A stretch of DNA of 64,000 nt, taken from assembly GCA_964552755.1 (NCBI GenBank), contig CAZKHX010000001.1, positions 18,007-82,006 on the forward strand. The letters run 5' to 3'. Shown piece by piece: positions 19,871 to 45,889 of this stretch. The translations under genes were made by a program, and so were the position numbers. Position 1 is the stretch's first letter, and each line of letters starts with the position of its first letter. The notes under the pieces are model-generated. The model searched no databases. It was not told where the DNA came from and saw only the letters and a program-made list of their open reading frames with translations. This stretch comes from Candidatus Micrarchaeota archaeon (lineage in GTDB: Archaea; Micrarchaeota; Micrarchaeia; Anstonellales; Bilamarchaeaceae).

Positions 19871-19922
19871 GCGTCAGGATTAACCGGCAACCCTTTTTAT
19901 CTTTTTCCTCGAAAGTGGCGCA
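19870..19922. promoter_or_regulatory. Short divergent intergenic region with AT-rich TATA-like element between the two operons of the membrane-system block
   Basis: 'CCTTTTTATCTTTTT' lies ~30 nt upstream of ATG 19922. The same element read on the other strand precedes the minus-strand operon start (19870). Confidence 0.4.
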
Positions 19923-21187
19923 TGCGAAAGGCGCTTCTGCTACTGGCAGTGATTGCCCTGTGCCATGCAGGCGGCGCCTCCCCCAAAGTAGACCTCCCTG
20001 AGCTCGGGTTCGTATTCGTTGGCGCGGCAGTGCTCCTTTCCACGGCATTCATCGCGATAGCGTACATGGTCTCCAGCGCGTTCCAGAACCCGCAGGCGAT
20101 TGCATGGTCGAAGAACCAGCTGCGGGAACTGATTGTCGGGGTGTTCATAGTGGTACTGGTTGTCGGCGCGTACGTGGCGGCGAACGAGCTCATCTCCAGC
20201 ATGACCGGCTACCCCAACGCGGTGGAGCTGGGGGAGGACAACATCCGCGATATACTCGCCCCGATAGAAAAGATATACAAGAAGGTGGGCGAGGCCTATT
20301 TCACGCTCGGCCAGTACCAGGGCTCTTCCACCTCATACGTCTCTGGCAACCTCGGCTACATATACTATCATGAGTCCAAGAGCCCGTATTACGGGGTGAG
20401 CCCGGTGATGGGCAGCCTCAACCAGCAGACCTACCAGCTCACGATGCAGATACTCTCCTTCCGCTTCCTGCTTGTGCTTCTCCAGTACATAGACGTAGTG
20501 GTGCCGAATTTCCTCCTTCCGCTGGGCATGGCCTTCCGCGTGTTCCCGTTCACGAAAAAGATAGGGAACACGCTGATTGCGCTCGCTCTCGGCGCGCTCT
20601 TCATGCTGCCCGCGTCCCTGCTTGTGGTGGACGAGATGCGGAAGGCAATCACGTTCCAGCATGTGGACGCGGCCGCGCTCATGAGCTTCCAGGTGAGCAG
20701 CGCCATGGGCGAGATGACCGGCAGCGCCACAGGAGATGCGCTCTACAGCCTCCTCATATGGCCCTACCTGGTCGCAAAGGAAACCTGCGAAATAGCGACA
20801 GTCCGCACGTTCTTCTCTTTGGGGGAAATAGTGTGGGGCGTCATATATGCGACGCTTGCCGCGATAAAGTGCCTCGCCGGCTATGCGGCCTGCTGGGTGA
20901 TTGAGTTCAACTTCTTCGTGTTCTTCCTGTGGCCGTGGATAATGTTCTTTGCGCAGAACATACTCGCGGTGCTTGTCGCGATAGCCGGCACCCCGTCAGC
21001 GGGGTTCATCTACGACCTGCTGGTCGCGGACATAGTAAAATACCTATTCCCAGCGGTGAGCGAGCTCACCACCTTCTCCATAATGTCAATAATAGTGATA
21101 GCGGTAATCACGTTCACAGGAACGCGCTCGATATCTGTCGCCCTGGGAGGCGAGTACGCCCTTTCAGGGCTTTCGAGGCTGATATGA
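19922..21187 (+). CDS. Polytopic membrane protein, paralog M1 of a 6-member tandem family
   Basis: Signal-like N-terminus, multiple TM helices, core motif 'LLPLGMAFRVFPFTKKIGNTLIALALGALFMLP', C-terminus '...LSGLSRLI'. Stop overlaps the next start (ATGATGA). Confidence 0.75.
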   Translation: MRKALLLLAVIALCHAGGASPKVDLPELGFVFVGAAVLLSTAFIAIAYMVSSAFQNPQAIAWSKNQLRELIVGVFIVVLVVGAYVAANELISSMTGYPNAVELGEDNIRDILAPIEKIYKKVGEAYFTLGQYQGSSTSYVSGNLGYIYYHESKSPYYGVSPVMGSLNQQTYQLTMQILSFRFLLVLLQYIDVVVPNFLLPLGMAFRVFPFTKKIGNTLIALALGALFMLPASLLVVDEMRKAITFQHVDAAALMSFQVSSAMGEMTGSATGDALYSLLIWPYLVAKETCEIATVRTFFSLGEIVWGVIYATLAAIKCLAGYAACWVIEFNFFVFFLWPWIMFFAQNILAVLVAIAGTPSAGFIYDLLVADIVKYLFPAVSELTTFSIMSIIVIAVITFTGTRSISVALGGEYALSGLSRLI

Positions 21188-22074
21188 TGAGGGCCGCGCT
21201 CTTCCTCCTGCTGCTTGCGCCGCTGTGCTCCGCGGCAACCTGCGACTTCGCGAGCGACGTGTTCGCGGATGCAATCCCGATAATCGCCGCTGCGATACTT
21301 TTCTCAGTGGCGCTTGCCGCAATAATGTACATGGCAGGCAGCGTGCTGCACGACCCCGGCCTGCACGTGGGCAGCAAGGACCTGCTGTTCCAGGCATTCG
21401 TCTCCATACTGCTAGTGCTCTTCATACAGGGGCTGTTCACCGGGCTGTGCCTCATGACGGCAGATTTCCTGGGAGGGCAGGATGCCCTCTCCACCGCAAT
21501 CTACGATCTGAGGCAGCTCAAGATTGAGGGTGCGCAGATACTCACCAACCTGATGAAGAAGGTGGTGAACGAGAAGTTCACCGCGGCGTATTTCTCCGGC
21601 TACTACATCCCGCTGAGCGGGGGCGAGACGTTTTTCCCCTACGGGGAGCACAACGCATATGCGCGCCATGCGGAAATCGTCTTCGACATGGCGATGATCG
21701 GCTACGTGAGCGTGGGCATACAGAGCATGATACTGAAAGGGATACGGGACCTCACGCTCGCGATACTGCTCCCGTTCGGGCTGATACTGCGCTCCCTCCC
21801 CAAGCTCAGGGAGGGCGGCAACATCCTCATCGCGCTCGCTCTCGCATTATATGTGGTATTGCCGTTTGCGTATGCTGTGAATTCCACCGCTGCGGACATC
21901 ATCCCTGATTTCTGCGACGGCGATGACGGGGTGTTCGGCGCATGCGGGGATGGGTACGGGTTCGGCACGGTCGGGCTCTACCTGTTCCGTACGGTATTCC
22001 TACCGAACCTCGCGCTGGTGATTTTCGCAACTTCCGCAGGCGCGCTGGTGAAAGTCGCGAAGGTGATTCCATGA
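21184..22074 (+). CDS. Polytopic membrane protein, paralog M2
   Basis: 'MMRAALFLLLLAPLCSA' N-terminus; core motif 'LLPFGLILRSLPKLREGGNILIALALALYVVLP'. ATGA overlap with M3. Confidence 0.7.
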   Translation: MMRAALFLLLLAPLCSAATCDFASDVFADAIPIIAAAILFSVALAAIMYMAGSVLHDPGLHVGSKDLLFQAFVSILLVLFIQGLFTGLCLMTADFLGGQDALSTAIYDLRQLKIEGAQILTNLMKKVVNEKFTAAYFSGYYIPLSGGETFFPYGEHNAYARHAEIVFDMAMIGYVSVGIQSMILKGIRDLTLAILLPFGLILRSLPKLREGGNILIALALALYVVLPFAYAVNSTAADIIPDFCDGDDGVFGACGDGYGFGTVGLYLFRTVFLPNLALVIFATSAGALVKVAKVIP

Positions 22075-23879
22075 ACAGGCGCATAGCGGCATTGCTGCTC
22101 CTCGCGATATTCCTTTTCGGGTGCGCCACGGAAGGCACTGCGACCGAAAGCGCGATAATCGAGGCGCAGGAGCGCGACACGCTCGTAGGCAACATGGTCG
22201 CGAACTGGGAGCTCTTCGCGGTAATGCTGATGCTCATCTCCGTGGGCCTTGTCGCAATGGCGTATGCGATTTCCATCTCCTTCAACCTCCCCGACCTGAG
22301 GGCATGGGCGGACGTTGAGCTCTCGGAAGTGTTCACCACCGCGCTCATAGTGATTTTCATAATCGCGATACTGGTATTCGTGGATGTTACTGCCGGCGCG
22401 ATGGTTGCAAGCGAGCCGATGTTCGCAGGGACGTGCGACCCGATGCTGAATCCCGAGGCCGGGCATGCCTTCTGCCCGTCCCTGCTCGCAAAGGAATACA
22501 TCGGCCAGTACGTGGATGCGGCGGAAACGCTTTACGAAAAGCTCACCAAGCGCGCGATAAACAAGGCGCAGGATGCGACCTACTCCTCCGGGCTCGGCAT
22601 CTCTTACCAGATTTACCTCTACCTCTCCATCTCATGGAGGAACCAGCCGTGGGAGATGATGAATGTGGAGCGGCTGGAGCAGCTAATCAATTTCACCGGC
22701 ATGGTGCTGGGCGCGCTGCACACGCAGAGGTTCCTGATAGATTCCATGTCGCTCGGCTTCGGGCCGATTGCCCTGCTCCTTGGCATAGTGTTCCGCTCGT
22801 TCTTCGTAACGCGCAAGATGGGCGGCCTGCTGATGGCATTTGGAATTGGGTTCATGCTGGTCTACCCCGCGTCGTATGCGCTAGGCTGGTTCACGCTTAA
22901 CGTTGCGATTTACGGAGTGGAGAACGTTGCGAGCGGCCCCACGGGCACATGCCCGCAGTCCTGCCTGCAGGCCCCTCCTTCCGGCTTCTACACCGACACG
23001 CTGGAGCCCGCGGCGTACAATGACGTTTATGCGGCCGCACTGGAAGAGGCGGACGGGGATGCGGAAGCGGCAAATGATGTCCTCCGCGGGTTCTTCAATG
23101 GCTCTACCCAGCGCCTCGGGGGCATTGAGTCGTGCGAATACTACGGCAATGAAGATGCGCTGAACTGCAGCTCCGCATGCAGGAGCCTCCCCTACCCGAT
23201 GCAGTCCTCGGGCTGCGCCGCGCGGGAGGCGGCATGCGCGGAGATGCCCGATGCGTGCATAATTTCGCACTATTACGATTCCGCGGACCCGGTGCTCCAG
23301 AACATAGATGCCGCAGCGGAGGTGAAGGCATGCCCGGCGGACTGCCAGCCCCTCGTGCCGATGAAGAGGGACTGCATCGAGGAATACGGGTATTCATGCC
23401 CGTCCCAGTGCAGGTACGTGATACTGGATACCGGGACCGGCGCGACAAAGACCGAGCCGGGGTGCTGGTGCACCGAATATTACCCAACTAATGCGCTCGA
23501 GCTATGGAGCGGAGCCCGCGCGGAGGAGAGCTGCGTGTACATAATTCCGGAAAAGGTCTATGACCAGCCGACCTACTGCAATGACTGCAGCTACACACTC
23601 GATCCCGGGCTTGCGTACAAGCCGCAGGTGTTCGTGGACTGCACTTCCCTTTGCGGCTCATCCACCAACCCCACCATAAACACCGAGGACCCGGCAACCG
23701 CTTCGAACAAGGTGGACGGGTTCATAGGGAACTCGGACATCAAGTCCGCGGCGAAGCTGGTGGTCCCCGCGTTCCTGCTGCCGCTGTTCAACCTCGCGGT
23801 AACCTTCATATTCATACAGACGCTTTCCCCGATGCTCGGCGGGGACATCGACATACCGGGCATGATGAGGCTGATATGA
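22071..23879 (+). CDS. Polytopic membrane protein, paralog M3, with ~290-aa Cys-rich extracytoplasmic insertion
   Basis: 'MNRRIAALLLLAIFLFGC' lipobox-like N-terminus; core motif 'IALLLGIVFRSFFVTRKMGGLLMAFGIGFMLVYP'; >25 Cys in the 22900-23760 segment; C-terminus '...IPGMMRLI'. Confidence 0.7.
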   Translation: MNRRIAALLLLAIFLFGCATEGTATESAIIEAQERDTLVGNMVANWELFAVMLMLISVGLVAMAYAISISFNLPDLRAWADVELSEVFTTALIVIFIIAILVFVDVTAGAMVASEPMFAGTCDPMLNPEAGHAFCPSLLAKEYIGQYVDAAETLYEKLTKRAINKAQDATYSSGLGISYQIYLYLSISWRNQPWEMMNVERLEQLINFTGMVLGALHTQRFLIDSMSLGFGPIALLLGIVFRSFFVTRKMGGLLMAFGIGFMLVYPASYALGWFTLNVAIYGVENVASGPTGTCPQSCLQAPPSGFYTDTLEPAAYNDVYAAALEEADGDAEAANDVLRGFFNGSTQRLGGIESCEYYGNEDALNCSSACRSLPYPMQSSGCAAREAACAEMPDACIISHYYDSADPVLQNIDAAAEVKACPADCQPLVPMKRDCIEEYGYSCPSQCRYVILDTGTGATKTEPGCWCTEYYPTNALELWSGARAEESCVYIIPEKVYDQPTYCNDCSYTLDPGLAYKPQVFVDCTSLCGSSTNPTINTEDPATASNKVDGFIGNSDIKSAAKLVVPAFLLPLFNLAVTFIFIQTLSPMLGGDIDIPGMMRLI

Positions 23880-24922
23880 TGAGGAAGCTGCTGCTGTTCG
23901 TGCTGCTGGCCGTTGCGGCCTGCTGGGCTGCCGAGCCCTATGAATGGCAGGCGCTCTCCATCATGGCGGTGTTCGTCGCGTTCATAGTCCTGGTAATCCT
24001 GTACATGCTCACCTACCTTGCGAATTCGCCGGAAATGCGCACAATGGTGAGCAGCGAGATGTACCAGGTGATATTCACCCTTTTCATAATCGCGATATTC
24101 ATCGGGGTGGAGGCGTTCTCCGCGGAAGTGATCGGGCCGGCTTTCGGCCTCGATTTCGGGGCGGCGGAGGGCCAGAACCAGATAGACTACGCACTGGAGG
24201 TCACGGGCGGCCCGGACGCATCCGACGGCCTCATCGCCTACCAGTGGGGCGAGATGCTCTCCTTCGCAAACAACGTGGTCTCGCCGCTGGGCACGCTTTC
24301 CGCGCTGAGCGCAAGGTGCTCGTTCCTCGGGTTCTCCTTCGGGTTCGCGGGCTGCGCAGGGCTTGCGGTGCCGTTCGCCTCCGCGTCCCTCGCAATGCGC
24401 GTGCTCTCAACCTCGCTGCTTATGCTCAATTCACAATACTTCCTGCTGAAGCTCGCGCAGGGCTTCTTCTTCCCGGTGCTGCTGCCGGTGGGGCTGTTCC
24501 TGCGCTCGTTCCACGTCACTAGGGGCGCGGGCGCCCTCCTCATTGCAATTGCCGCGGCATTCTATTTCATGTACCCGGTCGGCGTGCTCGTGACAAAGGG
24601 GATGGCGGACATGGTGGACTACCCGGACCCGGACATCCCGCACTTCGAGGCGCCGGACCCGACCGAGGCAGGGGAAATCCTTGGCGTGGACCTGCCCCCG
24701 GACGTCGACTGCAACCCCTTCGACAATGACTACAAATACACGAAAAGCGCGATGAACAAGCTGCTTGATGACGATTTCCTGCAGCCCATGCTGTTCCACT
24801 TCATGATTGCCGGCCTGCTGAATACTGCCCTGAGCCTTATGATAGCCCTCTCCGTTGTCGGGGGGCTTGCGAGGCTGTTCGGCGCGGAGGTTGACGTTTC
24901 CGCGCTTGCGAGGATGATATGA
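23877..24922 (+). CDS. Polytopic membrane protein, paralog M4
   Basis: 'MMRKLLLFVLLAVAACWA' N-terminus; core 'LLPVGLFLRSFHVTRGAGALLIAIAAAFYFMYP'; C-terminus '...SALARMI'. ATGATGA overlaps at both ends. Confidence 0.75.
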
Positions 24923-25932
24923 TGGGATGCCCTATTGACCTTTCAGGAGTTTACGGCCTTTCGGTGCTGGCACTGGGCATTACATTGATTGCCGTGGGGC
25001 TTGCTTATGCGCTCGGGCAGATGCTCAGGAACCCGCGCTTCAACGTTTGGGCAAAGACGGAAGTGTTCCAGGTATTCGTTACATTCGTGCTGGTGATTGT
25101 CACGCTTTTCCTTGTGGACAGCCTGTGCACGTTCCAGTATGGCGCGCTCACCTCGCTTGCGCCCATCTCGGTTGAGGCGTATGAGCATCCCGCAATATCG
25201 GATACGGACGTGGTGGCGGACGCCGCGGGAGGCTACCTCAAGAACCTCGCGTATTTCGCGCACATAGCAATGGGCAACTCCCGCGCGGTTTACGGCGGGC
25301 TGGAGAAGGCGCTGCGCTATAGCCGCTCCCCATGCATGCCCGCGTGGCTCCTCTGCATGCTCGGGCCGAACGGGTACACGCTCGCGCCCTACAGGGGCGG
25401 CTCCGGATGGATACAGGTCGCGAACCTCACCCTCTACACAGACACAATCTCATATCTCACGGTGCTTGCGCAGCTTGCGCTGCTGCAGTTCATACTCGGG
25501 GGCGGGCTCGCGGTGCTGATGCCCGCGGCAATAATCATACGCTCCCTCCCGTTCATGCGGATATTCGGGGGAGGCCTGCTCGCGATATGCATATCCCTGC
25601 TCATAGTCTACCCGTTCCTGCTGATGGCGGAATCGCTTTTCTGGAACCCGTATGAGATGATAGGGCAGGAGAATTTCGATGGCCTGGAAGACCTTGCAGG
25701 GAAGGCGCGCGATGCCAGCCACTCCGATGACCTCACGCTTTGGTCGGGAGGCGACGGCTATTCCAAGCTGCAGAGGTACTTCGACCAGGTGTTCCTCGGC
25801 TCGTCCGCCACATTCATGTCCTCGACTTTCCTGTTCATGCTGAACGTGCTTGTGATTACTGCCTCCGCGAGGGAGTTCGGCCGCGTGCTCGGAGTCGAGG
25901 TTGACATGAGCCGGCTGATGCAGATAGTGTAG
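24919..25932 (+). CDS. Polytopic membrane protein, paralog M5
   Basis: Core 'LMPAAIIIRSLPFMRIFGGGLLAICISLLIVYP'; C-terminus '...SRLMQIV'. Confidence 0.7.
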   Translation: MMGCPIDLSGVYGLSVLALGITLIAVGLAYALGQMLRNPRFNVWAKTEVFQVFVTFVLVIVTLFLVDSLCTFQYGALTSLAPISVEAYEHPAISDTDVVADAAGGYLKNLAYFAHIAMGNSRAVYGGLEKALRYSRSPCMPAWLLCMLGPNGYTLAPYRGGSGWIQVANLTLYTDTISYLTVLAQLALLQFILGGGLAVLMPAAIIIRSLPFMRIFGGGLLAICISLLIVYPFLLMAESLFWNPYEMIGQENFDGLEDLAGKARDASHSDDLTLWSGGDGYSKLQRYFDQVFLGSSATFMSSTFLFMLNVLVITASAREFGRVLGVEVDMSRLMQIV

Positions 25933-25940
25933 GTGATGAG

Positions 25941-26954
25941 ATGACTGCAGGCGTTGATGAGATGCTCGGGACGGTTTTCCTCAGCCAGTGGGTTGCGCAA
26001 ATGGGCTGGTTCACCAATGCGGTGCTCGCGGTCATCGTCACCGCCTTCATATTCGGGATAATCTACGTGATTGCGTACGCAATCAACTCCTTCCCGCTGA
26101 GGAGGTACGCGACATCGGAGTTCCTGCAGCTCGCGGCTACCGCGCTGATGGTAATCGGGCTGGTGGCCTTCATCCAATTGGGCTCTGCCGCGGTTTCCAC
26201 CTCCCTCGAGGGACTGGGCGTGCCATGCATGGGCGAAACATATGTTGAGCCGATAAGCGCCGCGATGTGCAAGACGGAAGAGCGGCTGATATTCTTCGAT
26301 GAGGCATGGAGCTTCCTGCGCGAGGACGTGCGCGGGGCGGAATGGTTCTACTACTTCACGATTTCCTATTACGGCGTGCCGCTGTTCCAGGGGCTTTGGG
26401 TGGCGTCAATCCACAGGCAGGTGGAGACCGCGCACTACCTTGCGTACAAGATAGTGTCCATACAGCTTTCCCTCAATGCGCAGATGTTCCTGCTGAAATA
26501 CATACGGGAAAACATGCTCACCATCTTCCTGCCGCTGGGGATAATACTGCGCACGTTCTATTTCACGCGCGGCATAGGCGGGTTCTTCATAGCGCTGGCG
26601 CTGTCCCTGTATTTCATATACCCCACAGCGCTGTTCATCATGACCGCGGTTTCCATCGGGCCGCCGGCCGTGCCGGTCCCCTCGCTTACCACAGTGGGCA
26701 TCTGCGACCTTCCAATGTACTCCGGAATGGCGTTCGGCTCCGCGAACCTTGCGACCATGGCCGGCACGGGCGGGAGCACGATGGCCTCCGCAAGCGTGAA
26801 CACAATCGCATCCTTTGTGAATACGGTATTCGTGAGGATGTTCTATGAGAACATGGTCGCGTTTGCGATTGCGCTTACCGCGCTCCGCTACGCAGGGGTG
26901 CTGCTTGGCACCGAGACAGGGGTGTTCCTGCACATGGTTTCGAGGTGGATATGA
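25941..26954 (+). CDS. Polytopic membrane protein, paralog M6
   Basis: Core 'FLPLGIILRTFYFTRGIGGFFIALALSLYFIYP'; C-terminus '...HMVSRWI'. ATGA overlap with the next gene. Confidence 0.7.
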   Translation: MTAGVDEMLGTVFLSQWVAQMGWFTNAVLAVIVTAFIFGIIYVIAYAINSFPLRRYATSEFLQLAATALMVIGLVAFIQLGSAAVSTSLEGLGVPCMGETYVEPISAAMCKTEERLIFFDEAWSFLREDVRGAEWFYYFTISYYGVPLFQGLWVASIHRQVETAHYLAYKIVSIQLSLNAQMFLLKYIRENMLTIFLPLGIILRTFYFTRGIGGFFIALALSLYFIYPTALFIMTAVSIGPPAVPVPSLTTVGICDLPMYSGMAFGSANLATMAGTGGSTMASASVNTIASFVNTVFVRMFYENMVAFAIALTALRYAGVLLGTETGVFLHMVSRWI

Positions 26955-29900
26955 TGAAAAAGCTTCTTGCGCTGCCCGCAATCGCCTTCCTTTTCCTTCT
27001 GGGGTGCAACGCGCCCACTTACCAGGATTGCTGCCTTTACGCGAACGCAAGCGATAGCGGCATCTGCGTGATGCTGAACGGCACAATCTACGATGACAGC
27101 ACCTGCGACATGGAACTGCTCACCTGCAACGTGACGCTGGACGACAGGGAGCTGGAGATCCCCCTCTGCCCGAAAGTGGACAAGGTTAGATGCAACACCT
27201 CCTGCGTGGGCGTGTTCTGCGGCAGCTTCGACTACGACCCGAGGCCGCTGCCCAGCCCCGCGGATGACATGCAGAGCGACGATGAGGAATCGCAGGAGCG
27301 GGTGACTGCAGGCTCCGCTTCCGAGCGCGGGCCGATAAACCTTTTCCAGTCCGAGTGCAGGGTGAAGAACATCACCCCCGCGTTCCTGCGCGCCGCGAAG
27401 AGCACGGGCGGGTTCACGCTCAACGTGTTTCGCTTCGGGGTCGGGAACTCCTTCGCGGAATTCGACGAGGCGATGGCATACTTCCCGCTCACCGACCTCT
27501 CCTGCAGGATAAACATGTACGGGACGAAGGACCGCTACGTGAACTACGTGCTGCCGAACAGCATAGACGGCTCGGAAAAGCTGTGCAGGTTCACCGGCAT
27601 CCTTGACGCGATGTATATCTGCAATATTGATTCCACAATCGAGTCGCACAGCTATTACGACTGCGCGAGCAGATGCGCGCTCGCATACCAGGGCTACGAG
27701 CCCAATGTGGACCCGGACAACCCCTACCCTACGGAGAACGAGGCCGGGGAGCTCGTGGGCAACCCGTTCTCGTACGGGATTTACGGCACCTATTCGCTTG
27801 CTCCGGCCGAGCCGCTTGTGCTGAGCAGCAAGTACCGCGACCAGGTTGACATGTCCGGCATCACGTTCACTTCCACCTCGCCATTCAAGGACGAGTACCA
27901 GCCGGGCTACAACTTCTACGGCGCGACCTTCAGGAAATCCGATTCGCTCAGCGCGGAGAGGGGGGGAATAGACTGGGCAGTCGCAAGATACGGCCTGCCC
28001 ATTTTCTTCACCGATTCCATATACGACTATTACTCCGGGGAGATGGAGGACACGGACTCCATGGAGTTCTCCGGCTCCACCACCGTTTTCACCACCGCGG
28101 AGCAGGACCTGCACGGCGCGTACATCCCGCTGCTCACCCACCACTCGGTTTATGCGGACCAGCTTGCCGAGGGCCACAGGCTAGACAACGGCTCATGGAT
28201 GCCGGGCGCGGAGTTCGAGTGTGCGGACAATTCCGAATGCATCTCCGGCTTCTGCAACACTTTCGACTACCACCGGGGCAACTGCATCCCCAAGGACAAG
28301 TGGATTCTGGGCGAATATATCTCCAACTATGAAGTGCCGTGCGGCTGCTGGGAATACCAGGGCGAGACGCTCTGCCCAGGGATGCAGAGCTATGAGGCGC
28401 AGGCATGGGACGACACAAGCGAAAGGGTGCGCGCGACCGCAGCGCTTTCCGCCCCCGTGCGTGCGCACAAAGAGCTGGAGGTGCTCACCCCGCTGCGGAG
28501 CATGCCCTCCAAGGGCCGCGTGTTTTCCCATGAGGATGATGAGACCGGGGAAACCATCCCCTACGTAGTGATACAGGTCGGCGGGGAAAGCAGGCACCCT
28601 ACTTACGGGTACACTAATTTCGGAGCCCTGGACATGGCAGGCGTGTTCGATGATGAATCGTACAGGGCCGCGATGGCAGCATGGCTCATGGCCGTCGATG
28701 CAAGAACCCTTACCATCGACCAGGCGCTTTCCCGTGACAAGTGGGGCCAGTGCGGCACGGACTGCGGCAAGTTCTACACGACCTTTGCGGAGGCATGCAT
28801 GCCCGAATGGGATTCCGACCCGGATGCGTATGACTATTTCCACATGTGCAGGGAGTTCCCCGAGGTTTCCGGCGGCTCTGCACCCCCCGCCGCAGTCTAC
28901 GGGAAAAAAGTGTCCCCTTCCACCGGGGAAGCGGTGGATTCCGGCTTCTGCGCCTCCCTCAACGGGAACAGCGAGCTGTACGATGAGGTCTTCTGCTATG
29001 AGCGCAACATAGACGATGACTGCGTAGCATGGTCCACTACCGCGATAGTTGTAGAGCCGCGCCCGGTTACTTACCGCGATGAGGAGGGCAGGGAAATTGC
29101 AGGCTATGCTTTCGGCAACTGCCTTGCGGACGAGGACGGCACGGAGCTGCTCACGCACACCTACGGGATTTGCGAGCAGTGCACCTTCCTCACGCTCGCG
29201 AAGCAGGAAATCGTTCCCCTCCCGCAGGACGAGGACGACCCGGGCTACCCAGGGAGCGGCGACAGGGAGGACAACAAGTACTGCCCGAACGTGGTGGTGG
29301 AGACGCCCTACGAGCCGAACGACCCTGCAGTAACGAAATTCGGGAGCCTCGGCCCTTATGACGAGTGGCAGGTTGGCGGCACTCACGGCACCGAGGACTA
29401 TTCTCAGTGCTACATGCCGGACTATTCCGAGAACGGCCTGCAGGAAGCCTGGGCCGACTACCTGCCCAACGCATACTACCTTAAGAGGAAAACCGAGAGC
29501 TACCTAGTGCGGGGCGTGATGCCCGTAATCGTCGCGACCAACGACAGCCTCTGGGAGGCATACACGAGCCCCGGGGGCGAGAGAGACTGGGCGCTGATGG
29601 CGTATTATTGGAACCACATCACGAGGGATGACGAAGGATATGCGCGGGTAACTATAGACGCGAGCCACCCCTACATGATTGAGCTTGCGGAGAACGAGCC
29701 GCAGCTGCTGGAGCAGTTCGCGCAGCATGACGAGGCCGGGGAATACTATGCCTTCGGAGGCCCGCTGCTCCTGAACGGCATACAGGACATGGGCGCCGCG
29801 ATAATCATCGTCGGGAACCAGGACCTTGGCGACTGGAGCAGCATACCCCTGTTCGGCGCTTACAGTGCCGGGGGCGGGGCAAGCAACAGGGACAGGGCCA

Positions 29901-31108
29901 GGGCGGTCCGCCTCATCTGCCCCAACTGCATGGTCGCAGTGGGCGCGGGTTATACCGGATACGGGGGGGATGCCGAGAACAGCTACCAGCGCCGGCTCGA
30001 TTTCGCGAACTTCCTTTTCCGCTACCAGAACGAATCAACGCATTACATACTCAACGGGCCGGACAGCTACAACCTGACCATCCCGTGCGAAGACCCGCGG
30101 CTTGAATGCGACAACGAGGCCCTGAACCTGGTGGACGTGCTTGCGATGAAATGGGAGCTCAGCAAGGAGGATTCCTTCTGCGAAATAGAAAATGAGCAGG
30201 AGCGCTTCCAGGCAATCCTTGACGCGGAAACCGGCCTCGGCTCGCGCATGCTTGCGCGCTTCCACAAGCCGGTCGTGATTACGGACTTCAGCATAGTGCT
30301 CACCGAGTTCGATACCTGCTGGGACGCGGAGAGCGCCGCACGCTTCATGGTATTCCTTTCGGAGCACACGCAGGAGCTTGCGGAGAGCGGCCACCTAGGC
30401 ATAATCTATGATGCATGGACGAAGGAGCGGGCGGAGGCCGCGCCCACGGGCACCGCCACCGCTGCGGAGCAGGGCCGCGCCTACATCCGCGTGGACTCGG
30501 GCGACGTGGACGGCAGGAGGGGCACGTTCTATGAGGGCGCCTTCATCGCCTCGCGCATCTTTGCGGGCTACGAGCACAAGACCTATTTCAACGAGGTGAG
30601 CGCAACCGAGGAATGCTACTGCGAGCCCTGCCTGCCCTCCGACCCGGATGAGATTTGCAACGGCCGCTACCGCGGGGTTGGCTATGAGTGCAAGGACTAT
30701 GACGGCTCGCGCAGCAAATGGTCTGAAATGTGCGTCTCGCTCAACCAGTGCACCCTCCCCGGCGAGGATGATTATGAGATTGAATGCGACGTGATATACA
30801 ACAACGGCACCCGCACCACGGAAACCTACCATTCTGATGACATTGCGGAAACCCCTCAGCTCTACATGGACGTGATTGCCTCAATCGAGGAGGGCTACGG
30901 CACGCCCTGCTTCAACTTCAGCGGCAATTACATAAGCTATGTGAAGATTGGCGAGCCGATTTTCCAGGCAACGCCCACGATGTTCAGGACCGATGGCGAC
31001 ACCGCCAAGTCCTGCACCCCGCTGGAGGGCTTCGACCTTTCCTTCTGCGGCTACACGCCGCCCGTGAGCGACAGGGAGATGCACTGTGAAATACTAGGGG
31101 TGAGGTGA
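26951..31108 (+). CDS. Giant (1387-aa) secreted cysteine-rich lipoprotein
   Basis: 'MMKKLLALPAIAFLFLLGC' is a signal peptide plus lipobox. The protein is very Cys/Asp/Tyr/Asn/Gly-rich throughout and has no TM after the signal. It is translationally coupled to M6. Confidence 0.75.
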   Translation: MMKKLLALPAIAFLFLLGCNAPTYQDCCLYANASDSGICVMLNGTIYDDSTCDMELLTCNVTLDDRELEIPLCPKVDKVRCNTSCVGVFCGSFDYDPRPLPSPADDMQSDDEESQERVTAGSASERGPINLFQSECRVKNITPAFLRAAKSTGGFTLNVFRFGVGNSFAEFDEAMAYFPLTDLSCRINMYGTKDRYVNYVLPNSIDGSEKLCRFTGILDAMYICNIDSTIESHSYYDCASRCALAYQGYEPNVDPDNPYPTENEAGELVGNPFSYGIYGTYSLAPAEPLVLSSKYRDQVDMSGITFTSTSPFKDEYQPGYNFYGATFRKSDSLSAERGGIDWAVARYGLPIFFTDSIYDYYSGEMEDTDSMEFSGSTTVFTTAEQDLHGAYIPLLTHHSVYADQLAEGHRLDNGSWMPGAEFECADNSECISGFCNTFDYHRGNCIPKDKWILGEYISNYEVPCGCWEYQGETLCPGMQSYEAQAWDDTSERVRATAALSAPVRAHKELEVLTPLRSMPSKGRVFSHEDDETGETIPYVVIQVGGESRHPTYGYTNFGALDMAGVFDDESYRAAMAAWLMAVDARTLTIDQALSRDKWGQCGTDCGKFYTTFAEACMPEWDSDPDAYDYFHMCREFPEVSGGSAPPAAVYGKKVSPSTGEAVDSGFCASLNGNSELYDEVFCYERNIDDDCVAWSTTAIVVEPRPVTYRDEEGREIAGYAFGNCLADEDGTELLTHTYGICEQCTFLTLAKQEIVPLPQDEDDPGYPGSGDREDNKYCPNVVVETPYEPNDPAVTKFGSLGPYDEWQVGGTHGTEDYSQCYMPDYSENGLQEAWADYLPNAYYLKRKTESYLVRGVMPVIVATNDSLWEAYTSPGGERDWALMAYYWNHITRDDEGYARVTIDASHPYMIELAENEPQLLEQFAQHDEAGEYYAFGGPLLLNGIQDMGAAIIIVGNQDLGDWSSIPLFGAYSAGGGASNRDRARAVRLICPNCMVAVGAGYTGYGGDAENSYQRRLDFANFLFRYQNESTHYILNGPDSYNLTIPCEDPRLECDNEALNLVDVLAMKWELSKEDSFCEIENEQERFQAILDAETGLGSRMLARFHKPVVITDFSIVLTEFDTCWDAESAARFMVFLSEHTQELAESGHLGIIYDAWTKERAEAAPTGTATAAEQGRAYIRVDSGDVDGRRGTFYEGAFIASRIFAGYEHKTYFNEVSATEECYCEPCLPSDPDEICNGRYRGVGYECKDYDGSRSKWSEMCVSLNQCTLPGEDDYEIECDVIYNNGTRTTETYHSDDIAETPQLYMDVIASIEEGYGTPCFNFSGNYISYVKIGEPIFQATPTMFRTDGDTAKSCTPLEGFDLSFCGYTPPVSDREMHCEILGVR

Positions 31109-31118
31109 GGGTGATTTA

Positions 31119-34100
31119 ATGTTTTGTCCCGAAATAAAGGCGATGAGGCCCGCCGCATTCCTTGCGCTCCTGATTCTCGTTTCCCTAGCCTTTTCCACGA
31201 CCGGCCGGCTGCCCATGCAGATCGACCAGCCGCCGCTTATACCCGGGATGGGCGTCCCGCCCATGCACGTCCCTCCCCCTTGCGAGGAATGCCCTGCAGA
31301 GGGTTCCCTGCAGCCGTTCATGTTCTCCTCCCTAAATGAGGAGGCGGAGATTACCACTGTTACGATGGGGGTGCAGGCTGCGGACGAGCGCTACCCCGTG
31401 GAGGGCGCCACAATTTTTGCATATGTTTACGACCGTGACGGGTTCGAAACTGACAAGTGCAGGATGTACACCGATTCATCCGGCACCGCGGAATTCGACT
31501 TCAGCGGCATCCCGGAATGCACCGGAGGGGACGGGTGTACGATGCGCTTCATCTTCTGCTGCCCGAACCCCGGGCAGGGGTGCCTCATCGCAAGCTGCCT
31601 TGACGAGCCGATTACCGATTATACTGATTTCCCAATGTGCGCAGATTACAGCGGCGGGATATGGCCCGAGGCCGCAACGGTAGACGGTTCAGAGGAGCCG
31701 CTTTTCCCTGCGTATACCGAAACGGTGAGGCCGCCCGAAGAGGTGGTGATTGGCACCGCATTCGAGTTCGACCTCTGCTTCCCGGTGCTTGTCATTTTCG
31801 GCTTCCTTGCGGCCGCGATGTTTGCCGCGGGCAGGAATCCCTTCTCTGCATTTTCCATCTACACCCCGCGCTACACGCGGGGCGCGGAGCGCGCAATCAG
31901 TGCCCGCGGGTTTTCAATTGACGCGGCAAGCGTCGCGAGCGCGCTCGGCCTCGCCATGGCAGGGGGCAAGGCGCTCAAGAAGGCCGCGAAAAAGGCCGCG
32001 GCAAAGGCCAAGAAAGCGGGAGTGAGCGCCAAAAAGGTGCAGATGGCGGTGAAAGGCGCACAGACCCCTTCCAAGAAGCTGGGAGTGCAAGAAGGAGAAG
32101 AGGCAAAAGGGGGCGCGCAGGCCCAAAAGGCCGAATTGACCGGGGCGGGGGGGCCGACGCAGGCGGAAATAGCGATGGGCGCGGCCGCAGGAAAAGCGAT
32201 GCCCGGAGGCACCGCGATGGCCTTCGGAAAGTCCTTCTTCAAGGCAATATTCTCAATATTCAAGGGCGGCGATGCCGCAAGGGCAGCATGGGCGGAATTC
32301 GGGCAGCTGATGTCTGCCGGCAAGTTCAGGGGAGACATGGCGGCCCAATACCAGGGAGCAGGGGTAAGGGAGGCAGGGCTCGCATTCCTGGATACCCTCC
32401 TGCTGTTCGCAACCCCCTTCGGCCTTTACTATGCATTCGGGCAGCTGGGCCCGGTCAAGAAGCAGCTTGCCAAATACCAGGGCCAGAGGAACGCTCTTGT
32501 CGCGGCAGGCCTCATAAACCAGTTCAAGGAAGGCACCGCCTACATAAAGGAGAAGGACGGCATAGTCACGGTGCAGTTCGACAACGTCGCCACCGGGGAA
32601 ACAGTAAAGGAAACGTTTGACATAACCACAGAAAAGGGCATGAAGGCCTACCAGCACTTCCTCAACATCAACATAGTGATGCCTATCCAGATAGGCACCT
32701 CATTCATCCAGAGCCAGATGCAGGAAGGCCAGCAGGAAATGGCAAAGCAGGGGAACGGGGCGCTTACAGGGGATTCCGGGGACCTGCTCACCCAGTTCTA
32801 CCTTGTCGAGCAGGGCATGAACGTTGCGGAGCTCCAGAAATACTCCGACGCAAAGGCAGTCGACGCGGTGCTCACAGACCGCAAGGCCACTTCCGAGCAG
32901 AAGCTCTTCGCATTCCTTGCCTACATGTCCTCGGACAAGGCGAACCTTGCGAAGGCATCAAAGGAATACACGAGCTTCAACAGCTTCCTGCTCGGCTACG
33001 GGGGGGCCGCGGACCTAGTGGGCGAAGACGGCAAATTCAACGTTTCCGCCCTTACCGGAGCAATGCTGCTCTCGGGCCAGCTGGAAGGGGTATCCGAGAA
33101 GAAAGTCAGCGGCATAGCCGCGTTCAAGGCGAACCTTGAGGGGACCGTTGACCGGACAACCGGAGCGGCGCAAAACGAGGCAATAGAATCCCAGCTGCTG
33201 GCAATGGAAGCGCAGATGCTGCTTGAGGGAAAGGGCGAAAGGGAAATCGCGGTTGCGAAAAACAGGCAGGAGGCATACCTGCGCGGGAAGGGCATGGGGA
33301 TTTCCTCCGTCCTCGCGACCGAAGGCATGGGCGAGGACAGCAAGGCCGTCCAATTGGGCATACTCTCCCTGGGCTTTGCGAACATGGCCTATTCCGAGCA
33401 GCTTGGGAACAAGTCAATTGCGGAAACCGGCACCGGCAAGCTGAACAAATACTCTGCGGAGTATGCCGCGTGGAAGAAGCTCGAGATAGACGTAAGCGAG
33501 AGGAAGGGGGAGAAGCTGGAGCAGTTTGCGGATTCCTATAAGGATTATCAGGCATTCCTCGGGTATTCGCAGGAGATTGCGCTCGCGCTCCCGGAAATGC
33601 CCCCCGCGCTGCAGTACAAGCCGGAGGGCTCGCCCTCTGCCATGGCAATCGGCGTGGTTTCTGGGCAGGCGAAGCTGGAGAGCGTCCCGAAGGTGAGCGT
33701 CGGGGACGTTGCGGTTGCAGGCACCTACCAGATAGTGGGCAACCAGCAGGAAGCCGCGACGTATCTCAAAAACCTTGGGCAGATAGGCAATGCGTTCGAA
33801 ACGATGGGAATGCTCCTGCAGCCGATGGCAGTGGCCAACAACATAAACGCAATGAGTGTAGGCGGGGACCCGGAAACCGGCAAGGAAGGCAAGCCAGTTT
33901 ACGAACTGCTCGTTTCGGGAGAGCCGAAAGGCAAGAAGAAGGGAGAACTGTACGACTCGGCCATCTATGTAATGATGAGCACGCTGGAAACCTCATTCGG
34001 CGAGCCGCTTTCCACGCGGGGGGCGGAGGAGTATAAACAATTCGACTACATAAACTCCGGCGCGAAAAAGGCAGGGGAAAAGCCGCCGGAATATAAGGGC

Positions 34101-35156
34101 GCGGAGCTGCAGAAGCAGCTGGATGCGCAGGCAGCCATAATACTTGACCCTGCCGCAGACCCGGATGCAAAAGCCAAGGCGCTTGAGCAGTTTGGGTACC
34201 TTGCGCTGGGCACAATCCAGAGCTCCGGCAGCGCCAAGAAGGACAGGGGCATTGCGCTGGATGCAATTGCAGAGCTCGGCGTGACCAAGGCAACAAACCA
34301 ATATACGGACGCAACCCTTGGCCCAGAATACCTCCCCACATTCGAGACGACGACTGCCGAAACCGCCGCGGCGGAGCAGATACAAATAACAAAGGTGCAA
34401 TACCAGGCCCCCCAGCCCGAATATTCGAAGCCGGAAACCTCAGGGATGCTTACGACTTACCTCACCATGGGAAATACTTTCGCTGGCACTGAATCAATCC
34501 CCGGGGGGAGGGACCTGAAGAAAGAGATTGACTCCCAGACAAAGGTAGCGACTGACCCGAATTCCTCCCCGGACCAGGTAGCCGAATCGTTGCTTGTGCT
34601 TGGGCCGCTGACGCTTGGCGTTCTGCAGAACCCTGAAAGCAGCGCACAGGACAAGGCGCTGGCAAGGGCGGCCCTCACAGGCCTTGCGGACAAGGTGCCT
34701 GCTGACAACCTGCTGCCTCCCGAAGAAACGGTTGCCGAAACCACAGCAGGGGAACAGTTCAAAATCACGAAAAAAGGTTATGGCGCTCCGCCCCCCGCAT
34801 ATGCTCCCCCGGAGCCGGGCGCGAAGCCTCCCCTGGCCGGGGTGGAAGGCCTCGACCCGATGCAGAATTTCCAGAACATATACAACCTGCCGTCAGCGCA
34901 GAAGGCAATTGGCAAATACATGGAAGACCCAAAGATCCATGATGAAGCATTCAAGATGGAAAAAACCGCGAAGGAAACCTACGAAAGCATACCTGTGGGC
35001 GGCTACATAAGCAAGGAAGAGAAAGAGACCGTGCCCTTCCTTGAAGAACGCCCGTTGCCAAGGGCTACTGAGAGGTTTGAAGCGCCGCACGAAGCGACCG
35101 GCCCAAAAACAAGGGAGGAAAAGGCCGCAGGGCATTCCAAAGGCGGTAAGAAATGA
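31119..35156 (+). CDS. Giant (1345-aa) membrane protein: signal peptide, Cys-rich ~200-aa ectodomain, TM helix, then ~1100-aa K/A/E/Q-rich helical low-complexity domain with internal repeats
   Basis: Strong SD 'GGTGAGGTGAGGGTGAT' lies before ATG 31119. TM 'FEFDLCFPVLVIFGFLAAAMFAAG' at ~aa 215-238; 'KKAAKKAAAKAKKAG' tracts; ~130-aa internal repeat ('TAETAAAEQIQITKVQYQAPQPE' / 'TVAETTAGEQFKITKKGYGAPPPAY'). Confidence 0.75.
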   Translation: MFCPEIKAMRPAAFLALLILVSLAFSTTGRLPMQIDQPPLIPGMGVPPMHVPPPCEECPAEGSLQPFMFSSLNEEAEITTVTMGVQAADERYPVEGATIFAYVYDRDGFETDKCRMYTDSSGTAEFDFSGIPECTGGDGCTMRFIFCCPNPGQGCLIASCLDEPITDYTDFPMCADYSGGIWPEAATVDGSEEPLFPAYTETVRPPEEVVIGTAFEFDLCFPVLVIFGFLAAAMFAAGRNPFSAFSIYTPRYTRGAERAISARGFSIDAASVASALGLAMAGGKALKKAAKKAAAKAKKAGVSAKKVQMAVKGAQTPSKKLGVQEGEEAKGGAQAQKAELTGAGGPTQAEIAMGAAAGKAMPGGTAMAFGKSFFKAIFSIFKGGDAARAAWAEFGQLMSAGKFRGDMAAQYQGAGVREAGLAFLDTLLLFATPFGLYYAFGQLGPVKKQLAKYQGQRNALVAAGLINQFKEGTAYIKEKDGIVTVQFDNVATGETVKETFDITTEKGMKAYQHFLNINIVMPIQIGTSFIQSQMQEGQQEMAKQGNGALTGDSGDLLTQFYLVEQGMNVAELQKYSDAKAVDAVLTDRKATSEQKLFAFLAYMSSDKANLAKASKEYTSFNSFLLGYGGAADLVGEDGKFNVSALTGAMLLSGQLEGVSEKKVSGIAAFKANLEGTVDRTTGAAQNEAIESQLLAMEAQMLLEGKGEREIAVAKNRQEAYLRGKGMGISSVLATEGMGEDSKAVQLGILSLGFANMAYSEQLGNKSIAETGTGKLNKYSAEYAAWKKLEIDVSERKGEKLEQFADSYKDYQAFLGYSQEIALALPEMPPALQYKPEGSPSAMAIGVVSGQAKLESVPKVSVGDVAVAGTYQIVGNQQEAATYLKNLGQIGNAFETMGMLLQPMAVANNINAMSVGGDPETGKEGKPVYELLVSGEPKGKKKGELYDSAIYVMMSTLETSFGEPLSTRGAEEYKQFDYINSGAKKAGEKPPEYKGAELQKQLDAQAAIILDPAADPDAKAKALEQFGYLALGTIQSSGSAKKDRGIALDAIAELGVTKATNQYTDATLGPEYLPTFETTTAETAAAEQIQITKVQYQAPQPEYSKPETSGMLTTYLTMGNTFAGTESIPGGRDLKKEIDSQTKVATDPNSSPDQVAESLLVLGPLTLGVLQNPESSAQDKALARAALTGLADKVPADNLLPPEETVAETTAGEQFKITKKGYGAPPPAYAPPEPGAKPPLAGVEGLDPMQNFQNIYNLPSAQKAIGKYMEDPKIHDEAFKMEKTAKETYESIPVGGYISKEEKETVPFLEERPLPRATERFEAPHEATGPKTREEKAAGHSKGGKK

Positions 35157-35464
35157 CCGGAACCCGGCCGATGAGGCGCCTGAGGCGCCACCTCACGGTT
35201 GAGAACCTCTGGCTATACATCCTCTCATTAATCAGGAAAAAGAAGGAAGTTTACGCATATGCGCTCCCGGAAGAGATAGAGAAGCGCTATTCCTTCAAGC
35301 CCAGCAGGGTGATGATGTACATAGTATTGCACATGCTGGAGGATGAGGGGCTTATTACAAGCAAAATGAAGGAGCGCAGGAAATATTACAGGCTTACGAA
35401 GAAAGGCAACGAAGCGCTGAAAGAATCCAGGAAAATGCTCACATCCCTTTCAAGGAAGCTCTGA
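35153..35464 (+). CDS. PadR-family winged-helix transcriptional regulator
   Basis: 'ENLWLYILSLI...YAYAL...MYIVLHMLEDEGLI...RKYYRLTKKGNEAL' is a PadR signature. ATGA overlap with the giant gene. Confidence 0.75.
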   Translation: MTGTRPMRRLRRHLTVENLWLYILSLIRKKKEVYAYALPEEIEKRYSFKPSRVMMYIVLHMLEDEGLITSKMKERRKYYRLTKKGNEALKESRKMLTSLSRKL

Positions 35465-45783: not shown

Positions 45784-45889
45784 TGGGGCTGTAGGGATTT
45801 GAACCCTAACATGCAGGTTTCTTGAGAGAACTCCGCCGAAGCGGATCTCGCCTGGAGCCTGCCGCGCTACCTGGTTACGCCACAGCCCC
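45784..45889 (-). tRNA. tRNA-Trp(CCA) with ~33-nt intron
   Basis: Acceptor GGGGCUG/CAGCCCC, D-stem GCGU/GCGC, anticodon stem GCAGG...CCUGC, loop 'CUCCAG^intron^A', T-arm UAGGG-UUCAAAU-CCCUA. The intron is a hairpin 'GGAGAUCCGC-UUCG-GCGGAGUUCUC' with no obvious box C/D. Confidence 0.75.

Follow-up and report, generated by a model that had tools for sequence, protein, structure and literature searches.

A giant membrane protein with a rapidly diverging tail represents an unannotated protein family in a conserved gene cluster of Micrarchaeota

Results and discussion

The analysed window, a stretch of 64,000 nt from a Candidatus Micrarchaeota archaeon, contains an open reading frame, here called H, in which a single membrane anchor is followed by more than 1000 residues. 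What kind of protein is this, and what may such a long tail be good for? An earlier note on this DNA had been reminded of tape-measure or fibrous spacer proteins.

Reading frame and conserved N-terminal module of H

The frame of 1345 aa seen before was confirmed at 31,119–35,156 (+ strand). It is unbroken and has the same length in a second, independent ENA assembly that is 96.9% identical; the H proteins of the two strains differ at 42 residues, with zero indels and zero stops. A Shine-Dalgarno-like GGTGA, read directly from the sequence (31,110–31,114, +), begins 1 nt past the stop codon of the preceding gene G (TGA, 31,106–31,108) and lies 4 nt upstream of the H ATG, which is 10 nt past that stop. 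At the other end the H stop shares the ATGA at 35,153–35,156 with the start of a PadR gene, in agreement with the operon membership that had been proposed from a strong Shine-Dalgarno site and tight spacing. Since the N-termini of orthologues match Met9, translation may start at this alternative codon, at 31,143, instead of 31,119.

The conserved part of H begins with a signal peptide or N-terminal hydrophobic segment (aa 9–27, 31,143–31,199, +; hydropathy, AF2 helix at aa 11–24). A CxxC motif at aa 55–58 precedes an Ig-like beta-sandwich, modelled by AF2 at pLDDT 95–98, whose conserved, disulfide-rich core spans aa 60–210 (31,296–31,748, +). The ectodomain comprises about 190 aa and is indeed Cys-rich: its 10 Cys all fall within aa 55–174, and there are none past aa 220. 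A strong and, as expected, single TM helix follows at aa 217–238 (31,767–31,832, +; KD 2.47, AF2 helix at aa 217–236), and behind it the alignments reveal a basic juxtamembrane motif, GRNPF..F....PR..R......ARG(F) (aa 238–266, 31,830–31,916, +). Invariant in the family alignments are four Cys columns and, within GRNPF, the residues G, N, P and F; R, R and G are nearly so. In the form GRNPF...PR...RGRGF, this motif is the signature of the H family on the cytoplasmic face. A Foldseek search with the ectodomain model gave zero matches at E<=0.001. Surface adhesins and S-layer proteins contain Ig-like, FN3 and macroglobulin-type beta-sandwich domains, which match H in the generic fold alone (identity 4–14%). 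An additional sub-domain rich in Cys and the CxxC are specific to the H family.

Throughout the family the Cys density is 4.5 per 100 aa before the TM helix and 0.15 per 100 aa behind it; in H, Arg residues are clustered right behind the helix and acidic residues lie ahead of it. The extracytoplasmic parts of the neighbouring gene products C and G are Cys-rich, too. From the Cys partition and the basic juxtamembrane motif we infer that the tail is cytoplasmic, behind signal peptide, ectodomain and TM helix. Some family members carry extra Beta_helix/NosD domains N-terminal to the conserved module, which is consistent with an N-terminus outside the cell. The proposed bitopic architecture of signal, ectodomain, one TM and long tail is thus upheld by hydropathy and AF2.

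A protein family with rapidly diverging tails

Sequence searches with H gave zero matches in Pfam, NCBIfam, PHROG and PDB. An exhaustive search with a profile of the N-terminal module, the representatives being clustered at 50% identity, yielded 374 cluster representatives (258 at E<=1e-10), mostly of 900–1800 aa, and the H protein of the window scores 322 bits against this profile (E 3.7e-91). As judged by these sequence matches, H is a member of a previously unannotated protein family, defined here. All named relatives are Micrarchaeota except one MAG labelled Iainarchaeum, a restriction resting on one pattern-based genome scan and a few source names. Viral relatives were searched for and none was found.

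Every member has a long tail after the conserved module, so that orthologues lacking it, which would have spoken against the earlier description, did not turn up. Tail lengths range from 325 to 1908 aa; in about 140 representatives the tail is free of Cys and runs on uninterrupted for 325 aa or more (median 963 aa, interquartile range 807–1073). Composition, hydropathy and length class are preserved family-wide. The sequence is not: measured against three syntenic relatives, the tail of H retains 0.00–0.04 bits/aa and its N-terminal part 0.62–0.65, compared with 0.6–1.06 for the products of genes A to G and 1.3–1.4 for PadR and pelota. No gene in the neighbourhood diverges nearly as fast as the tail. 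Tails can be aligned in 92% of the pairs at 60–70% N-terminal identity and in 13% at 40–50%, a drop that indicates vertical descent with rapid divergence. A conserved domain was sought at the C-terminus of the family and not found, and for aa 442–1345 of H, the Cys-free, fast-evolving remainder of the tail (32,442–35,153, +), sequence comparison detects homologues within the same species only.

Composition and internal repeat of the tail

Beyond the TM helix H has 1107 aa and 0 Cys (A 14%, G 10%, K 9%, E 8%, L 8%). The earlier note had taken more than 1000 aa as K/A/E/Q-rich low-complexity sequence. A long Ala-rich tail does exist, but low entropy (3.1–3.3 bits) is limited to aa ~250–420, and the other ~900 aa are of ordinary complexity (3.4–3.9 bits). 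Entropy and AF2 delimit an A/G/K-rich low-complexity stretch at aa 270–420 (31,926–32,378, +; for instance KALKKAAKKAAAKAKKAGVSAKK), which is unconserved among close relatives and falls below pLDDT 40 at aa 316–370. The supposed helical character of the tail was not substantiated either. The AF2 model, reaching to aa 480, gives low-confidence helices alone for aa 245–480, and helical or heptad periodicity was looked for in the tail and is undetectable. When charge is plotted against hydropathy, most of the tail comes to lie on the ordered side, hence it may be a folded helical domain that has a specific function in spite of its weak constraint.

A second hydrophobic segment, also noticed before, is present at aa 419–441 (32,373–32,441, +; AF2 helix at aa 416–431) but weak, with a KD of 1.47 and both an Asp and a Pro inside. 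HMM matches to this motif occur in 7 of 160 tails, it is kept in the nearest subfamily alone, and close relatives align R/S/N-containing sequence to it. Probably, it is an amphipathic or buried helix and not a TM segment.

Local self-alignment detects two repeat copies of about 105–115 aa, at aa 993–1106 (34,095–34,436, +) and aa 1129–1232 (34,503–34,814, +), with a score of 173 compared to 33 +/- 6 for shuffled sequences. Nothing else inside H exceeds the shuffles; hence, of the internal repeats announced in the plural, one two-copy duplication is real. At the DNA level the copies are 73% alike over just 44 nt, and the independent assembly carries both of them. Therefore, the repeat is a genuine old duplication and not an assembly artefact, a possibility that had been raised. 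It is lineage-specific and missing in all other family members.

A conserved cluster of envelope genes

Upstream of H, six paralogous genes A–F encode proteins of about 5 TM segments (19,922–21,187, 21,184–22,074, 22,071–23,879, 23,876–24,922, 24,919–25,932 and 25,941–26,954, all +). They have the motif LLPxGxxLRxxxxTRxxGxxLIA in common, and five of the six end in GGE..LS..xRxI. Hydropathy and Cys pattern suggest an N-out/C-in layout with a large extracytoplasmic loop. Gene G (26,945–31,108, +) encodes a secreted protein of 1387 aa with a lipobox-like LLGC and 53 Cys. Its structural model is of moderate confidence (mean pLDDT 60, barrel 70–87) and shows at aa ~830–1160 the (beta/alpha)8, or TIM, barrel fold of clan GH-A; with moderate confidence, we regard G as a giant disulfide-rich, lipoprotein-like surface protein, putatively glycoside-hydrolase-like. 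The catalytic pair of clan GH-A consists of a Glu acid/base at the end of beta4 and a Glu nucleophile at the end of beta7. By eye, an invariant Asp of G, D1114 in the strand VVITDF, is located where the nucleophile might be expected.

H is followed, as often in related loci, by gene I for a PadR-family regulator (35,153–35,464, +), and their overlap is, from its sequence, a translational coupling. Junctions in the cluster are tight or overlapping, and a TATA-like TTTTTATC (19,893–19,900, +), found by eye ~22 nt ahead of the A start, is a candidate promoter of an A–I operon. The order A-B-C-D-E-F(-G) is identical in 40 related loci (36 genome loci, L001 and L038–L040), with H after G or divergent upstream of A wherever this region is visible. 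A gene for a cytoplasmic protein of 189 aa (u189, 17,949–18,518, −) adjoins the cluster in most related loci. A membrane-anchored, Cdc48-like double-AAA+ ATPase (15,194–17,911, −), the only ATPase near the cluster, does so in closer relatives only; its membership is therefore uncertain and it provides no firm energy source.

None of the proteins A–H has a match in Pfam or NCBIfam, and PHROG gave zero for 10 cluster proteins. According to these comparisons the A–H cluster is previously undescribed and found throughout the Micrarchaeota, which are host-dependent, tiny symbiotic archaea. The published S-layer protein of Micrarchaeota is described as PF05123-like and as having almost no sulfur amino acids (10.1101/2021.04.28.441871). 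Neither G nor H is a candidate for it, as they do not match PF05123 (S_layer_N) and G contains 53 Cys.

Possible roles of H

Our preferred reading, to which we would assign a probability of roughly 0.45, is that H might belong, as a type-I membrane subunit, to a complex of the envelope that is undescribed so far, and that its tail in the cytoplasm might be a scaffold tolerant of sequence change. The beta-sandwich and TM module would dock H to the A–G assembly, on the outer membrane face or within the membrane. Rather than an enzyme or a ruler, the tail would be a flexible scaffold, a tether or a spacer in which many sequences are tolerated, as its evolutionary rate and composition suggest, and the lineage-specific repeat of ~115 aa would have lengthened it. 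The complex as a whole, we infer, may deal with glycans of the cell surface or with contacts between cells at the archaeal envelope.

A more far-reaching version of this is a long shot. The products of A–H could form a new envelope-spanning machine of the Micrarchaeota, in which A–F would assemble as a hetero-oligomeric ring, possibly a heterohexamer. The GH-like protein G and the Ig-like ectodomain of H would be its outer cap, and the ~1000-aa tails a cytoplasmic basket or tether. If true, it could be a docking or transfer apparatus on the symbiont side for contact with the host. In Microcaldus ARM-1, an unidentified 21-nm barrel has been seen beneath the S-layer at the docking site of host nanotubes (PMC11329633), and would then be a possible example.

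Known multi-component envelope systems resemble the cluster in part. As in Mce systems, there are six paralogous envelope proteins in a fixed operon order together with accessory membrane proteins with variable tails, and the mycobacterial owners of Mce likewise take up host material. This likeness is organisational only: the cluster has no MCE domain, YrbE permease or MceG ATPase, and A–F are ~5-TM and not single-pass proteins. VirB6 of type IV secretion systems is described as an N-out/C-in protein of ~5 TM segments with a large extracytoplasmic loop. A–F appear similar to it, and they, too, come with a large surface protein and with a partner that is bitopic. However, type IV secretion has one VirB6/TrbL protein where the cluster has six paralogues, the Pfam models TrbL/VirB6, VirB8 and VirB10 have zero matches in A–H, and a VirB4/VirD4-type ATPase, pilin or relaxase is found neither in nor near the cluster.

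Its position next to PadR raises the possibility, in our view an unlikely one, that H is a sensor and anti-regulator of this co-translated protein: a signal from the envelope or the host would be sensed by the ectodomain, and the tail would sequester or release PadR and so control the operon. In addition to the ATGA overlap, PadR stands directly after H in the window as well as in L003, L006, L007, L009 and L038–L040, and in L001 the pair is kept together although divergent from A–G. On the other hand, PadR is located upstream of A and apart from H in L023, and in L028 and L030 no PadR turned up in the available sequence past H. Moreover, ~1000 unconserved residues make an unlikely specific partner for a regulator that is well conserved, at 70% identity. 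Such sensing is compatible with a structural role of H and does not exclude it.

The preferred reading places the tail in the cytoplasm. It would be outside if aa 419–441 were a second TM and aa 445–1345 an extracellular fibrous stalk or spacer over the pseudoperiplasm, TolA-like or S-layer-anchor-like, which we consider quite improbable. TolA domain II is rich in A, K and E. H resembles TolA in its one TM anchor, polytopic partners in the same operon and a long, poorly conserved region of similar composition, which in TolA probably serves as a spanning connector. About one third of the family tails have a hydrophobic 19-mer 120–170 aa past the TM helix. A pseudoperiplasm of 20–25 nm was published for a Micrarchaeon (bioRxiv 10.1101/2021.04.28.441871). 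Against this stand the weakness and poor conservation of the segment, described above, and the absence of Cys from the ~900 later residues, whereas the demonstrably extracytoplasmic parts of the system are all Cys-rich. TolA itself differs from H: it has neither signal peptide nor ectodomain, its long domain is periplasmic and it ends in a conserved globular domain III, and its partners are TolQ/TolR of the MotA/ExbB family. The tail of H is predicted from Cys and charge to be cytoplasmic, its C-terminus is unconserved, and neither H nor its neighbours match a Pfam model; thus we reject H as a TolA-like connector.

That the tail is a molecular ruler, its length fixing how large a tube, needle or stalk the operon products build, appears very unlikely. 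Phage tape-measure proteins are long, fast-diverging and A/G-rich, some with hydrophobic segments and internal duplications, and in rulers length matters more than sequence. The tail of H, with its wide range of lengths in the family, shares these traits. However, tape-measure and injectisome rulers are extended helical proteins encoded in tail or needle modules and have no type-I layout with a disulfide-bonded ectodomain, whereas H has signal peptide, ectodomain and TM helix, which place its tail behind the membrane, and shows no detectable heptad periodicity. The genes around it encode a GH-like surface protein, PadR and membrane proteins of polytopic type, with no genes for tube, sheath, baseplate or chaperone nearby. 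The length of H does not correlate significantly, at low power, with that of G (Spearman 0.29, n=12) or of C (Spearman 0.19, n=10). With zero PHROG matches and no viral relative found, the earlier comparison with tape-measure or fibrous spacer proteins is not supported; a sequence-tolerant spacer or scaffold role on the cytoplasmic side is plausible.

Finally, we can hardly credit that the tail has no functional constraint, being an extension that drifts behind a small anchor protein, or a frame called in error: its near-zero similarity to syntenic relatives would fit, but against this stand the uninterrupted Cys-free tails in ~140 representatives, the clean frames of two strains, the translational coupling to the PadR gene and a composition and hydropathy conserved throughout the family.

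Structure of the H protein and its gene

The protein under study, H (1345 aa), is encoded by an ORF at 31119–35156 on the plus strand, the eighth gene of a tightly packed operon on this strand whose junctions overlap or nearly abut. A GGTGA site lies 4 nt before the ATG of H and only 1 nt past the stop of the preceding gene G, and the stop codon of H overlaps the start of the following PadR regulator gene as ATGA. The Shine-Dalgarno sequence and tight spacing that an earlier note had read from the sequence are thus borne out. The same is true for the Cys-rich N-terminal domain with signal and membrane anchor: hydropathy analysis gives a signal-like segment at aa ~9–27 and a single strong TM segment at aa ~217–238, the stretch from aa 55 to 174 contains ten Cys residues, and there is none after aa 220. 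In an AF2 model of residues 1–480, built on a 61-sequence alignment, aa ~60–210 form a predicted Ig-like beta-sandwich (pLDDT 95–98) and aa 217–236 the TM helix (pLDDT about 90). The following aa 245–480 appear as low-confidence helices, broken by aa 316–370 with a pLDDT below 40.

The long part behind the TM helix and the basic motif next to it, here called the tail, is composed of 14% A, 10% G, 9% K, 8% E and 8% L. The earlier note had called it a low-complexity domain. This is correct for aa ~250–420 (3.1–3.3 bits per 50-aa window), but the rest has ordinary complexity (3.4–3.9 bits). A conserved role in DNA binding, like that of a histone-H1 tail, was rejected for the K/A-rich stretch because close relatives do not possess this stretch.

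The repeat within the tail, noted earlier as a tandem of ~130 aa, is real. Its copies at aa 993–1106 and 1129–1232 align with a score of 173, compared to 33 ± 6 for shuffled sequences, and are the sole off-diagonal signal exceeding the shuffles. At the DNA level the copies are 73% alike over 44 nt only, and both are present in an independently assembled variant of the same length and 96.9% identity. Therefore, the repeat goes back to an old duplication and is no artefact of assembly. It is missing from all relatives, and a search for further copies in H and all its relatives found none. The H of the window is longer by 158–254 aa than its syntenic orthologues (1186, 1091 and 1187 aa), and the duplication accounts for most of this excess.

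A large protein family with a conserved module and a nearly free tail

Searches of H against Pfam, NCBIfam, PHROGs and the sequences in the PDB gave no match. Word-indexed database searches were nearly empty as well: full-length H returned two hits, and a 24-sequence profile of the N-terminal part returned three and missed its own protein. Despite this, the family is large, as became clear from an exhaustive HMMER search with a profile built from five sequences of the N-terminal module. It yielded 374 representatives (clustered at 50%), and for 258 of these E was ≤ 1e-10. Most are 900–1800 aa long, with the module usually located at residues 1–350. Conservation is seen in a CxxC motif, in a beta-rich region whose core reads '...R.P....A.I.V......YTD..G.A.FDF', in the Cys cluster 'C..F...YCP.C....C.F..C' and, finally, in the TM helix and the motif GRNPF..F....PR..R...Y.ARGRGF that follows it. 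Cys residues occur at 4.5 per 100 aa before this motif versus 0.15 after it. That H belongs to this family and to the gene cluster considered below is close to certain. No relative of H turned up when viral contigs were scanned.

Some members deviate in their outer part. Three proteins encoded outside the window (P0135, P0128 and P0143) carry N-terminal extensions of 200–1000 aa with Beta_helix/NosD domains before the conserved ectodomain, and in the close relatives at loci L006, L007, L009 and L011 the ectodomain is enlarged to 400–500 aa with 37–57 Cys. At locus L028 (570–3874, minus strand) an apparently short orthologue of 796 aa is directly followed on the same strand by a 304-aa ORF at a shared coordinate; the gene may be frameshifted or split here, and its tail not truly short.

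In the 140 family members whose tails exceed 300 aa, the median tail length is 963 aa (interquartile range 807–1073, full range 325–1908). Divergence was measured as BLAST bits per residue against three syntenic relatives. The tail of H reaches 0.00–0.04 and its N-terminal part 0.62–0.65; the neighbouring genes A–G score 0.60–1.06, the gene u189 1.14–1.29, and PadR and pelota 1.3–1.4. Two of the three relatives can be aligned with H up to aa ~600–670 at about 30% identity, the third only to aa 274. When the tail was compared with those of other family members, phmmer found nothing at E ≤ 10 and BLAST a single weak match of 38 bits. Across the family, 92–97% of the tail pairs align if their N-terminal modules are at least 60% identical, and 13% at 40–50% identity. 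Thus, the tails are homologous by descent and diverge very fast. The tail evolves almost freely, yet it is always retained.

On the charge–hydropathy plot the boundary places eight out of ten 100-aa windows of the tail among the ordered sequences. This does not support a disordered region of the classical, highly charged polyampholyte type, and intrinsic disorder is therefore no firm claim here. The hydrophobic-moment spectrum showed no helix or heptad signal in the tail, but neither did the beta-sandwich used as control, so that this method is uninformative here. The C-termini of the family tend to be basic, the last 20 residues having a net charge of at least +3 in 36% of the tails versus 7% of internal 20-mers; H itself ends in ...HSKGGKK (+4).

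Gene cluster and its distribution

H is preceded by six paralogous genes, A–F (19922–26954, plus strand). Their products, 296–602 aa in length, have about five TM segments apiece and the motif LLPxGxxLRxxxxTRxxGxxLIA in common; five of them also have a C-terminal GGE..LS..xRxI. Gene G (26945–31108, plus strand) codes for a secreted protein of 1387 aa that contains 53 Cys and has a lipobox-like LLGC signal; downstream of G, on the same strand, come H and PadR. The gene lying divergently from A (18845–19870, minus strand) encodes a secreted protein of 341 aa that contains 12 Cys and, at its C-terminus, a hydrophobic anchor; between the two genes a candidate promoter, TTTTTATC, was read by eye at 19893–19900. 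Close relatives encode a weakly conserved version of the 341-aa protein (23–30% identity) at this position, and in L038–L040 its gene adjoins one for a 111-aa zinc-ribbon protein. Next comes u189 (17949–18518, minus strand), coding for an acidic cytoplasmic protein of 189 aa that is 60–62% identical in syntenic relatives; its stretch LLPYEGKGLRELLV resembles, by eye, the GNAT motif A. A double-AAA+ (Cdc48-like) ATPase of 905 aa, whose N-terminal domain (~330 aa) has several TM segments, is encoded at 15194–17911 (minus strand); only in the closer relatives does its gene adjoin the cluster.

None of A–G or u189 has a significant match in Pfam, NCBIfam or PHROGs, and PDB sequence searches with an A–F profile, with G and with a G-family profile found nothing. 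For G there are 21 homologues with 31–39% identity, and those with a source name are called hypothetical proteins. The assignment of a glycoside-hydrolase-like fold to G, a prediction from modelling, is reasonably supported.

For a genome scan, an alignment of ten paralogues was too divergent as seed, and a four-sequence alignment of D and F worked. From this single pattern-seeded scan, on which the taxonomic breadth of the cluster rests, 36 loci were obtained, nearly all titled Candidatus Micrarchaeota or Micrarchaeia and a few just 'archaeon'. One metagenomic locus (L001) and three syntenic ones found through G homologues (L038–L040) were added. The order A-B-C-D-E-F(-G) is identical in all 40 loci, with one-to-one orthologues of A–F. 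Wherever the region is visible, H is located immediately downstream of G or, in divergent orientation, upstream of A; in most of the loci u189 is found near the cluster. In L038–L040 the whole neighbourhood, with the AAA+ gene on one side and pelota, GMP synthase and a class-II tRNA synthetase on the other, is shared with the window; the cluster is therefore chromosomal and inherited vertically. For one of these three MAGs the submitter gave the label Ca. Iainarchaeum sp.

Possible function of H and the cluster

The partition of Cys residues in H, together with the Cys-rich loops of C and the Cys-rich character of G, points to an N-terminal domain outside the cell and a cytoplasmic tail. The conserved module would then be the part touching an assembly of A–G, and the tail may serve as scaffold, tether or spacer by virtue of its bulk properties, i.e. 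length, solubility and flexibility. The outward parts are glycosidase-like in G, adhesin-like in the ectodomain of H and beta-helical in some H relatives. Judging by these features, the complex probably has to do with surface glycans or with cell-cell contact. For the composite reading, a type-I protein H with a cytoplasmic scaffold or tether tail contacting A–G in such a complex, we estimate a probability of roughly 0.45, its weak part being the role of the tail.

Alternatively, H could be a sensor controlling PadR, which is rather unlikely although compatible with a structural role. The PadR gene comes immediately after H in the window-like group as well as in L001; in L023 it is placed elsewhere, and in L028 and L030 none was seen in the sequence available downstream of H. 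Somewhat less probable still is a second TM helix that would turn the tail into an extracellular stalk. A second hydrophobic segment, mentioned in the earlier note, does exist at aa 419–441, but it is weak (KD 1.47). It is quite improbable that the tail is a ruler or tape measure, as had been proposed at first: one organisational trait is in common with tape-measure proteins, but a tail, needle or tube module is lacking here, and H has a signal peptide, an ectodomain and a TM helix. That a tail so constantly retained is merely an unconstrained extension is hardly credible.

The locus also shares one organisational trait each with TolA, with Mce operons and with the inner-membrane components of type IV secretion, but the defining features of these systems are absent. 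G and H were furthermore considered as Micrarchaeota S-layer proteins and rejected, because both are Cys-rich and without a PF05123 match, whereas the published S-layer protein is PF05123-like and poor in sulfur amino acids.

To our knowledge, the proteins mediating contact and exchange are essentially unknown, and our literature search found no paper describing this cluster. The locus offers a concrete and testable set of candidates, an unannotated block of 8–11 genes for membrane and surface proteins which is Micrarchaeota-wide and located among housekeeping genes, with H as one signature subunit. If the cluster served ordinary envelope maintenance, H, the A–F paralogues, G and u189 would still be new families to annotate. 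H is, in addition, a clear natural case of a conserved anchor module with ~1000 residues that are nearly free and nonetheless retained, useful for the study of sequence-tolerant scaffolds. Cryo-ET of a cultured pair has revealed symbiont envelope structures with unidentified components (PMC11329633). For Microcaldus ARM-1, cryo-ET reports an unidentified 21-nm barrel under the symbiont S-layer, at the docking site of host nanotubes (PMC11329633). Linking the cluster to this barrel is pure speculation.

Other features of the window

The window is archaeal; among its genes are one for an archaeal LSU rRNA and one for pelota. The LSU match (5788–9376, minus strand) spans 3589 nt compared to 2987 nt of the model, indicating an insertion of ~600 nt, either an intron or an expansion. 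There is no SSU rRNA gene in the window, hence the rRNA genes are unlinked. A tRNA of 106 nt at 45784–45889 (minus strand) was missed by ARAGORN and found by Rfam; it probably contains an intron.
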